Shown in pieces: positions 50,270-50,530 of a stretch of DNA of 64,000 nucleotides. The position numbers and the translations under genes are program-made. Positions within the stretch are counted from its first letter, which is position 1. Each line of letters opens with the position of its first letter. The stretch lies in NCBI RefSeq assembly GCF_056746865.1, contig NZ_CM163382.1; one strand, 5' to 3'. A model generated the notes under the pieces. It did not search any database. It was not told the DNA's origin and saw only the letters and a program-made list of their open reading frames with translations.

Positions 50270-50530
50270 AAACTAACGTGCAGGTTTTGTAGGTCGGATA
50301 AGGCGTTCACGCCGCATCCGACACGGTATTTGGGTGCAGATGCCAGATGCGACGCGGGCGCGCCTTATCTGGCCTACGAAGGGCTAACGTGCAGGTTTGG
50401 TAGGTCGGATAAGGCGTTCACGCCGCATCCGACACGGCATACGGGGGCAGATGCCAGATGCGACGCTAGCGCGTCTTATCTGGCCTACGGGGTAACGTGC
50501 AGGTTTGGTAGGTCGGATAAGGCGGGATAC
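50270..50530. repeat. BIME/REP array between leuQ and rsmC
   Basis: Tandem ~113-bp units gtaggtcggataaggcgttcacgccgcatccgacacgg..gatgcgacgc..gcgccttatctggcctac (two full units and a partial one). Confidence 0.8.

Follow-up and report, generated by a model that had tools for sequence, protein, structure and literature searches.

An expanded BIME-2 array between rsmC and the leuQPV tRNA operon of Escherichia coli is a rare allele of REP351

Introduction

The gap between the methyltransferase gene rsmC and the three leucine tRNA genes leuQ, leuP and leuV is filled, in the 64,000-nucleotide stretch of DNA analysed here (contig NZ_CM163382.1 of assembly GCF_056746865.1; hereafter the window), by a periodic array of short palindromes. 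Such an array raises the question to which class of repeats it belongs, and whether it does anything for the transcription units on either side. The original prediction had described it, at 50270-50530, as an array of REP pairs (BIME) that should not be mistaken for CRISPR and that might serve as an insulator or terminator for rsmC. Among elements of this kind, BIME-2 is defined by z2 and y REPs joined by a short S linker and repeated in multiple tandem copies, the number of which varies between strains (PMC3333891). We analyzed the repeat structure, the alleles of the locus in E. coli, the corresponding intergenic region in other Enterobacteriaceae and the predicted properties of the transcribed RNA.

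Results

The window is E. coli DNA, and its positions 49400-51700 match several sequenced strains at 100% identity. As annotated by RefSeq in an identical strain, the genes of this region follow one another in the order fhuF, yjjZ, three tRNA-Leu genes, rsmC, holD, rimI and yjjG. The rsmC coding sequence (50531-51562, minus strand), which encodes the 16S rRNA m2G1207 methyltransferase, was recognised as an open reading frame of 343 amino acids and agrees with that annotation; its TAA stop codon lies at 50533-50531 on the minus strand. The genes leuQ-leuP-leuV (49830-50152, minus strand) are three tRNA-Leu(CAG) genes, as found by ARAGORN, by Rfam tRNA matches and in the annotation of K-12. Since rsmC and the tRNA genes all lie on the minus strand, the two units are arranged in tandem, and the convergent arrangement that had been assumed for rsmC does not hold. 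An open reading frame on the plus strand (50258-50911, 217 amino acids), which starts within the repeats and then crosses the 3' part of rsmC in antisense direction, has no RefSeq CDS and is almost certainly spurious.

The tRNA operon is preceded by a predicted sigma-70 promoter (50194-50221, minus strand) with the -35 hexamer TTGACG at 50216-50221, a 16-nt spacer and the -10 hexamer TAGAAT, which together match the consensus at 10 of 12 positions in a consensus scan. Directly upstream of it lies a block at 50222-50263 (minus strand, GGCCATTTTTCCAGCAAT...AATTAACTA) that is conserved across Enterobacteriaceae, is near-invariant among E. coli alleles and, being outside the repeat, forms the fixed boundary of the array. 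Along the minus strand, rsmC is thus followed by the array, the leuQ promoter and leuQ-leuP-leuV. Starting 6 nt beyond the rsmC stop codon, the array reaches to within about 50 nt of the -35 hexamer, in an intergenic region of 378 nt. Because it fills the whole gap from the stop codon to the conserved block, it is expected to be transcribed as the 3' untranslated region (UTR) of rsmC. Within the block, GGCCATTTTTCCAGC at 50249-50263 is a loose match to the FIS pattern, and its centre lies some 70 nt before the predicted start site. The positions presumed for FIS sites at the leuQPV promoter draw on this loose match; FIS sites at leuV were reportedly the subject of work by Ross et al. in 1999.

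The periodicity of the array was evident by several measures. Tandem Repeats Finder (TRF) placed a repeat at 50273-50524 with a period of 111, 2.3 copies, 92% matches and a score of 423, so that the repeat lies where it had been predicted. A repeat search returned two direct copies of 106 nt lying 111 nt apart (92% identity), a 36-nt segment present three times at spacings of 111 and 108 nt, and four short-range inverted repeats, which are the palindromes of the array. Units 1 and 2 are identical in 100 of 111 aligned columns, and the partial unit 3 in 32 of 33. The self-alignment that the original prediction had named as its check gave a best ungapped 100-nt match of 92/100, compared to a maximum of 44/100 in 30 shuffles. 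The predicted repetition was therefore borne out, whereas its period of about 113 bp has to be corrected to 111 and 108 nt. For the REP tail motif GCCTTATCYGRCCTAC, 17 sites were counted in the window compared to 0.07 expected, and five of them are in the array, on strands -, +, -, +, -. Overall, the array comprises four complete REPs and one half REP of alternating orientation (Y, Z2, Y, Z2, half-Y), which follow the plan Y, S linker, Z2 and tail linker 2.3 times.

Seen from the tRNA promoter, the array opens with a flank that contains the first copy of the tail-to-tail linker (50264-50288, minus strand), in which the repeat begins at about 50270-50273. Next comes Y1, the Y-type REP closest to the promoter (50289-50322, minus strand), which is delimited by inverted repeat I8, the tail motif and its fold. 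It is joined by the head-to-head S linker 1 (50323-50341, minus strand; 7 C and 2 G on the rsmC-sense strand) to Z2a (50342-50377, plus strand; inverted repeat I10, motif at 50362-50377), a Z2-type REP with hairpin energies of -16.4 and -20.5 kcal/mol on the two strands that falls within an Rfam match at 50292-50374. The tail-to-tail linker 2 (50378-50399, minus strand; 9 C and 3 G on the rsmC-sense strand) leads to the second copy of the Y-type REP, Y2 (50400-50433, minus strand), with inverted repeat I9, the tail motif and energies of -18.8 and -19.3 kcal/mol on the two strands; it forms the first hairpin of the second Rfam match. S linker 2, again head-to-head (50434-50452, minus strand; 8 C and 4 G on the rsmC-sense strand), lacks an IHF core motif and connects Y2 to Z2b (50453-50488, plus strand; inverted repeat I11, motif at 50473-50488). 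This second Z2-type copy is an imperfect palindrome with its CTAC tail on the plus strand and a hairpin of -21.4 and -21.9 kcal/mol on the two strands, and it is the second hairpin of the Rfam naRNA4 match at 50403-50485. After the tail-to-tail linker 3 (50489-50507, minus strand; 9 C and 2 G on the rsmC-sense strand), the array closes next to rsmC with a half Y REP (50508-50524, minus strand), which was defined by allele alignment. In rsmC-sense RNA it keeps only the 3' arm and the CTAC tail; when compared with alleles such as L003, a deletion of 30 nt has removed its other arm and the loop. Alone it gives no fold; the intact REPs each reach -16 to -22 kcal/mol on either strand.

The repeats have the properties of REPs: they are imperfect palindromes of about 35 nt with a GTAG/CTAC tail and a stable hairpin, they are extragenic, and they are multicopy, the region matching a median of 10 places per E. 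coli genome. Moreover, the array shows all testable features of BIME-2 and is, more precisely than had been predicted, an expanded and partly deleted allele of the BIME-2 element REP351 of K-12. With 19 nt, the head-to-head linkers are of the short S type; BIME-1 is defined by a long L linker that contains an IHF site. We accordingly rejected BIME-1, for which both the long linker and the IHF core are missing; the absence of the core WATCAANNNNTTR from 50200-50540 is a weak check, since the motif is absent from the whole window too. Relative to the BIME-2 family we saw no difference in kind, apart from stems that carry compensated variants of the consensus and from the one half-copy REP.

Both Y-linker-Z2 pairs match the Rfam family RF02564 (naRNA4) end to end, with 75.2 and 65.1 bits at a gathering score of 59.5 bits. 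The Y stem GTCGGA...TCCGAC differs from the naRNA4 consensus GCCGGA...TCCGGC, as does the Z2 stem GCCAGA...TCTGGC from GCCTGA...TCAGGC, and in either case the changes are compensated on both sides. These matches lie on the plus strand, antisense to both flanking transcription units, while the minus strand scores 44 bits, below the threshold. The Rfam model was built from units of REP325, which is itself a BIME-2 array (PMC4550694). As the matches are antisense and the transcribed strand reaches only 44 bits, we take the naRNA4 similarity as the mark of a BIME-2 unit and not as a sign of a small RNA gene.

The warning against reading the array as CRISPR was justified. Periodic palindromic repeats are the sole point in favour of a CRISPR array, which we exclude: the linkers repeat together with the palindromes (units of 111 nt that are 90-92% identical), so that unique spacers are missing, the orientation of the REPs alternates, no cas genes are adjacent, and the sequences belong to the REP family found genome-wide.

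In order to place the array among the alleles of the locus, E. coli genomes were sampled down the match ranking and representatives were aligned. The rsmC-leuQ locus occurs with 1, 2, 3 or 4.5 REPs: a single Y REP in O157:H7 and others, Z2 and Y after a deleted Y in K-12 and O112ab, Y-Z2-Y in several strains, and Y-Z2-Y-Z2-halfY in the window, which is the longest allele seen. The differences are insertions and deletions of whole modules of 111, 33 and 30 nt, whereas the promoter and the tRNA leader are near-invariant. Every sampled Escherichia allele retains at least one REP. The truncated junction of the half Y (a 40-mer) was present in 135 of 5,426 E. coli genomes and the Y2-S2 junction of the window allele in 134 of 5,426, the two having been counted separately; an intact five-REP allele was not found by junction search in the 5,426 E. 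coli genomes. FDAARGOS_497 and ECONIH1 are examples of strains with the window allele. The exact K-12 junction was present in 466 genomes, which are mostly laboratory derivatives among the matches listed. In another E. coli locus (L004, strain O157:H7 F8952) we observed a single tRNA-Leu(CAG) gene at 207-293 between yjjZ and rsmC, compared to three in the window and in K-12; tRNA gene copy number is thus polymorphic right beside the REP polymorphism.

REP351 of K-12 lies at 4606559-4606650, with flanks classed as tandem, rsmC then leuQ (supplement of 10.64898/2026.03.23.713779). It shares with the array of the window the locus, the flanks and the orientation relative to rsmC as well as the locus-specific variants of Y (GTCGGAT...ATCCGAC) and Z2 (GCCAGAT...ATCTGGC). 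It differs in that its first Y is deleted and followed by Z2 and Y, which leaves two intact REPs and an intergenic region of 267 nt compared to 378 nt, whereas in the window it is the rsmC-proximal REP that is shortened by the 30-nt deletion. We infer that the array arose by local gain and loss of REP modules through slippage or recombination and not by independent insertion of the copies, because all of them share the locus-specific compensated stem variants; a REP-associated transposase possibly helped in their amplification and deletion.

We additionally compared the corresponding region in 80 loci from 80 Enterobacteriaceae genomes, which were collected by an RsmC-based scan. A tRNA-Leu(CAG) gene lies 3' of rsmC in 78 of the 80 loci, usually within 120-400 nt and at most 808 nt away (Pseudocitrobacter, L034); in the remaining two, the sequence either stopped or departed from the search pattern ahead of any such gene. 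The promoter TTGACG...TAGAAT GCGCCTCCGTGG is conserved, its hexamers and the GCGCC discriminator in all 80 species, and so are about 45 nt upstream of it (CCATTTTTGCAGCAAT...AATTAACTA) across the 80 loci. The slot between the rsmC stop codon and this block nearly always holds a GC-rich hairpin in the 80 species, but its form varies. In several Citrobacter, Leclercia, Enterobacter, Pluralibacter and Silvania genomes the hairpin adjoins the conserved T-run and has the look of an intrinsic terminator, and in the Klebsiella oxytoca group it has its own T-run. Kluyvera and some Enterobacter genomes carry a REP or a REP pair in the slot, and E. coli, E. albertii, E. whittamii and another Escherichia sp. 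carry one to three REPs of the same locus-specific type. The BIME arrays of two Pseudocitrobacter loci (L034 and L039) are independent; they have about 8 and 4 units of about 93 nt and lie in intergenic regions of 808 and 459 nt, respectively. Most Enterobacteriaceae, however, have no REP in the slot and keep the same promoter. A locus labelled Chryseobacterium sp. 18061 (L085) also showed an rsmC-leuQ arrangement of the Enterobacteriaceae type, with 85% RsmC identity; this assembly is probably contaminated or mislabelled.

The near-universal presence of a GC-rich hairpin suggests that the conserved feature of the slot is a stable hairpin at the 3' end of rsmC, a part that the REPs take in Escherichia. 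The putative intrinsic terminators of Citrobacter, Leclercia, Enterobacter and others share with the Escherichia REPs both the slot and the GC-rich hairpin. They differ from them in that their hairpin adjoins the conserved T-run, whereas some 30 nt lie between it and the closest REP stem in Escherichia, where none of the REPs has a T-run of its own. As the hairpin adjoins the T-run of the 50249-50263 block in many genera, the T-tract of a terminator and the promoter-upstream element may share bases.

Finally, we considered the RNA that would be transcribed from the array. In the rsmC-sense direction it has a predicted folding energy of -113.4 kcal/mol (z = -6.4 compared to shuffles). The five linkers between the stable hairpins, each only 19-25 nt long, are C-rich and G-poor on this strand (C:G of 9:2, 8:4, 9:3, 7:2 and 6:4). 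A scan of the minus strand of 49700-50700 gave no terminator-like site, and none of the REP stems leads into a T-run; some 30 nt separate the stem of Y1 from the conserved T-run at 50254-50258. An intrinsic terminator was rejected, given that no stem lies directly 5' of a T-run. Control of rsmC translation by a stop-proximal REP was likewise rejected: such control reportedly needs a REP within about 15 nt of the stop codon, as Liang, Rudd and Deutscher are said to have found in 2015, and the first intact hairpin lies about 42 nt past the stop codon in the window and about 19 nt past it in common alleles.

Discussion

The above results identify the array as an already known element in a rare expanded allele and leave the question of its function at the end of rsmC. 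We consider it likely that the BIME-2 array, as part of the rsmC 3' UTR, provides stable 3' hairpins and a partial Rho-dependent terminator ahead of the leuQPV promoter. According to this model, the REPs in the rsmC transcript would form stable hairpins, with linkers rich in C and poor in G between them. Exonucleases that act 3'-to-5' would be blocked by these hairpins, which would thereby define and stabilise the 3' end of the rsmC mRNA, and the multiplied C-rich linkers could favour the loading of Rho, so that rsmC transcription would be partly terminated before or at the tRNA promoter. Of the terminator proposed in the original prediction, a terminating role as such thus remains plausible, in view of K-12 data on Rho and of the hairpins in other genera, while an intrinsic terminator is contradicted by the missing T-run.

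The label 'BST' in the K-12 data is presumably to be read as bicyclomycin-sensitive transcript. In the K-12 allele, which differs in composition from that of the window, the Rho rut peak M_N10_4712 (with NusG; 4606497-4606617, minus strand) overlaps REP351 by 58 nt, and a 'BST' interval at 4606504-4606675 on the rsmC strand is flagged as overlapping; the peak stems from an in vitro screen and its enrichment is modest (log10 FE of 0.53) (10.64898/2026.03.23.713779 and its supplement). The same work shows by experiment that REP325, another BIME-2, brings about partial, Rho-dependent termination and stabilises the mRNA upstream of it, and reports upstream-biased expression for tandem gene pairs containing REPs; it also found no detectable Rho dependence for REP fragments with 2 to 4 hairpins, and REPs did not uniformly lengthen mRNA half-lives (10.64898/2026.03.23.713779). 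Furthermore, 3' stem-loops, REPs among them, define the ends of Rho-dependent transcripts (Dar and Sorek). REP325 with its naRNA1-6 units (yjdM-yjdN) and the rsmC-leuQ array share the architecture of the unit and the position in a 3' UTR between tandem genes. However, REP325 has 12 REPs compared to 4.5, and the units of our array are reversed relative to transcription, so that the match to naRNA4 falls on the non-transcribed strand. As a consequence of this opposite orientation, the linkers are C-rich in the transcript. That the REPs occupy the place of the intrinsic-terminator-like hairpin of other genera fits the view of REPs as terminator or stabiliser elements of 3' UTRs.

Several observations limit what can be attributed to the array as such. 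Copy numbers from 1 to 4.5 and the truncation of the stop-proximal REP argue against a requirement for an array, and since alleles with one REP are common, its length is probably neutral or only modulatory; a single REP is probably enough for a hairpin or terminator role. In addition, read-through from rsmC into a very strong tRNA promoter may matter little, in which case selection for termination could be weak. These points lead to the reading that the array is neutral or selfish repeat DNA, a by-product of REP proliferation and slippage that affects the expression of neither rsmC nor leuQPV. That E. coli genomes vary module by module between 1 and 4.5 REPs would be expected of such DNA, as would the truncated REP of the window allele and the partly deleted allele of K-12, the variable copy number per locus that is typical of BIME-2 (PMC3333891) and the independent large arrays in the same slot of Pseudocitrobacter. 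Nevertheless, we regard neutrality as unlikely, since all sampled Escherichia alleles retain at least one REP, and since neither the near-universal GC-rich hairpin in the slot of 80 other species nor the overlap with the Rho rut peak and the 'BST' interval in K-12 would be explained. A selfish origin is, moreover, compatible with a hairpin function that was co-opted later.

Function could also reside in the DNA. By family resemblance, the DNA of the array is likely to be bound by gyrase, and the Y REPs might recruit the enzyme, buffer or set supercoiling and insulate rsmC from the leuQPV promoter. An excess of gyrase cleavage sites has been found in a subset of BIME-2 elements, mostly in the y REPs and independently of transcription (PMC6379681), two intact Y REPs are present here, the array stops exactly at the conserved promoter-upstream block, and the leuV promoter has been described as activated by FIS, with a mechanism of superhelical destabilisation (PMC3035224). 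Yet only a subset of BIME-2 elements is cleaved, the supplementary text of the gyrase study (PMC6379681) names neither rsmC nor leuQ, one-REP alleles are common, and most Enterobacteriaceae keep the same promoter with no REP at this place, which makes a topological role improbable. Lower still is the probability that the array encodes small RNAs of the naRNA4 type, which would bind HU and associate with the nucleoid, a reading we find hardly credible. For naRNA4 itself, HU binding and a role in nucleoid condensation have been claimed (PMC4550694), and the two plus-strand matches to RF02564 exceed the gathering score. From gene geometry, however, the matching strand is antisense to both flanking units, no promoter-like site was found upstream of the array on the plus strand, the transcribed minus strand stays at 44 bits and thus below 59.5, and the Rfam model describes, in practice, BIME-2 units in general (PMC4550694). 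Besides, REP325/naRNA4 did not lead to measurable nucleoid compaction (10.64898/2026.03.23.713779).

A more far-reaching idea, to which we assign a small probability, is that the gap between rsmC and leuQPV is a selected 'insulator slot' in which the BIME expansions of Escherichia and Pseudocitrobacter adaptively tune leuQPV output. If true, Enterobacteriaceae would depend on a strong structure between an mRNA gene of weak expression and a supercoiling-sensitive tRNA promoter that is among the strongest, and the growth of the arrays to as many as 4.5 REPs in Escherichia and to about 4 and 8 units in Pseudocitrobacter would tune Rho termination, gyrase recruitment or both, in place of a neutral drift of the repeats. 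Irrespective of this idea, the alleles with 1, 2, 3 and 4.5 REPs and near-identical flanks constitute a natural series that can be used to study how REP number affects Rho-dependent termination and 3'-end stability.

With regard to annotation, beyond which the array has little import, the correct label is a REP/BIME-2 element (an allele of REP351) and not a CRISPR array, a gene or a small RNA. The window contains a second and larger array of the BIME-2 type at 58117-58629 (period 101, 5.1 copies, 97% matches), which sits between the convergent genes yjjV (plus strand) and yjjW (minus strand) and is probably the first periodic array that the original prediction implied when it called the present one the second. 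Further REP sites at 28761-28880, 62102-62184, 20316-20331 and 40871-40886 comprise two REP pairs and two degenerate single matches to the tail motif.
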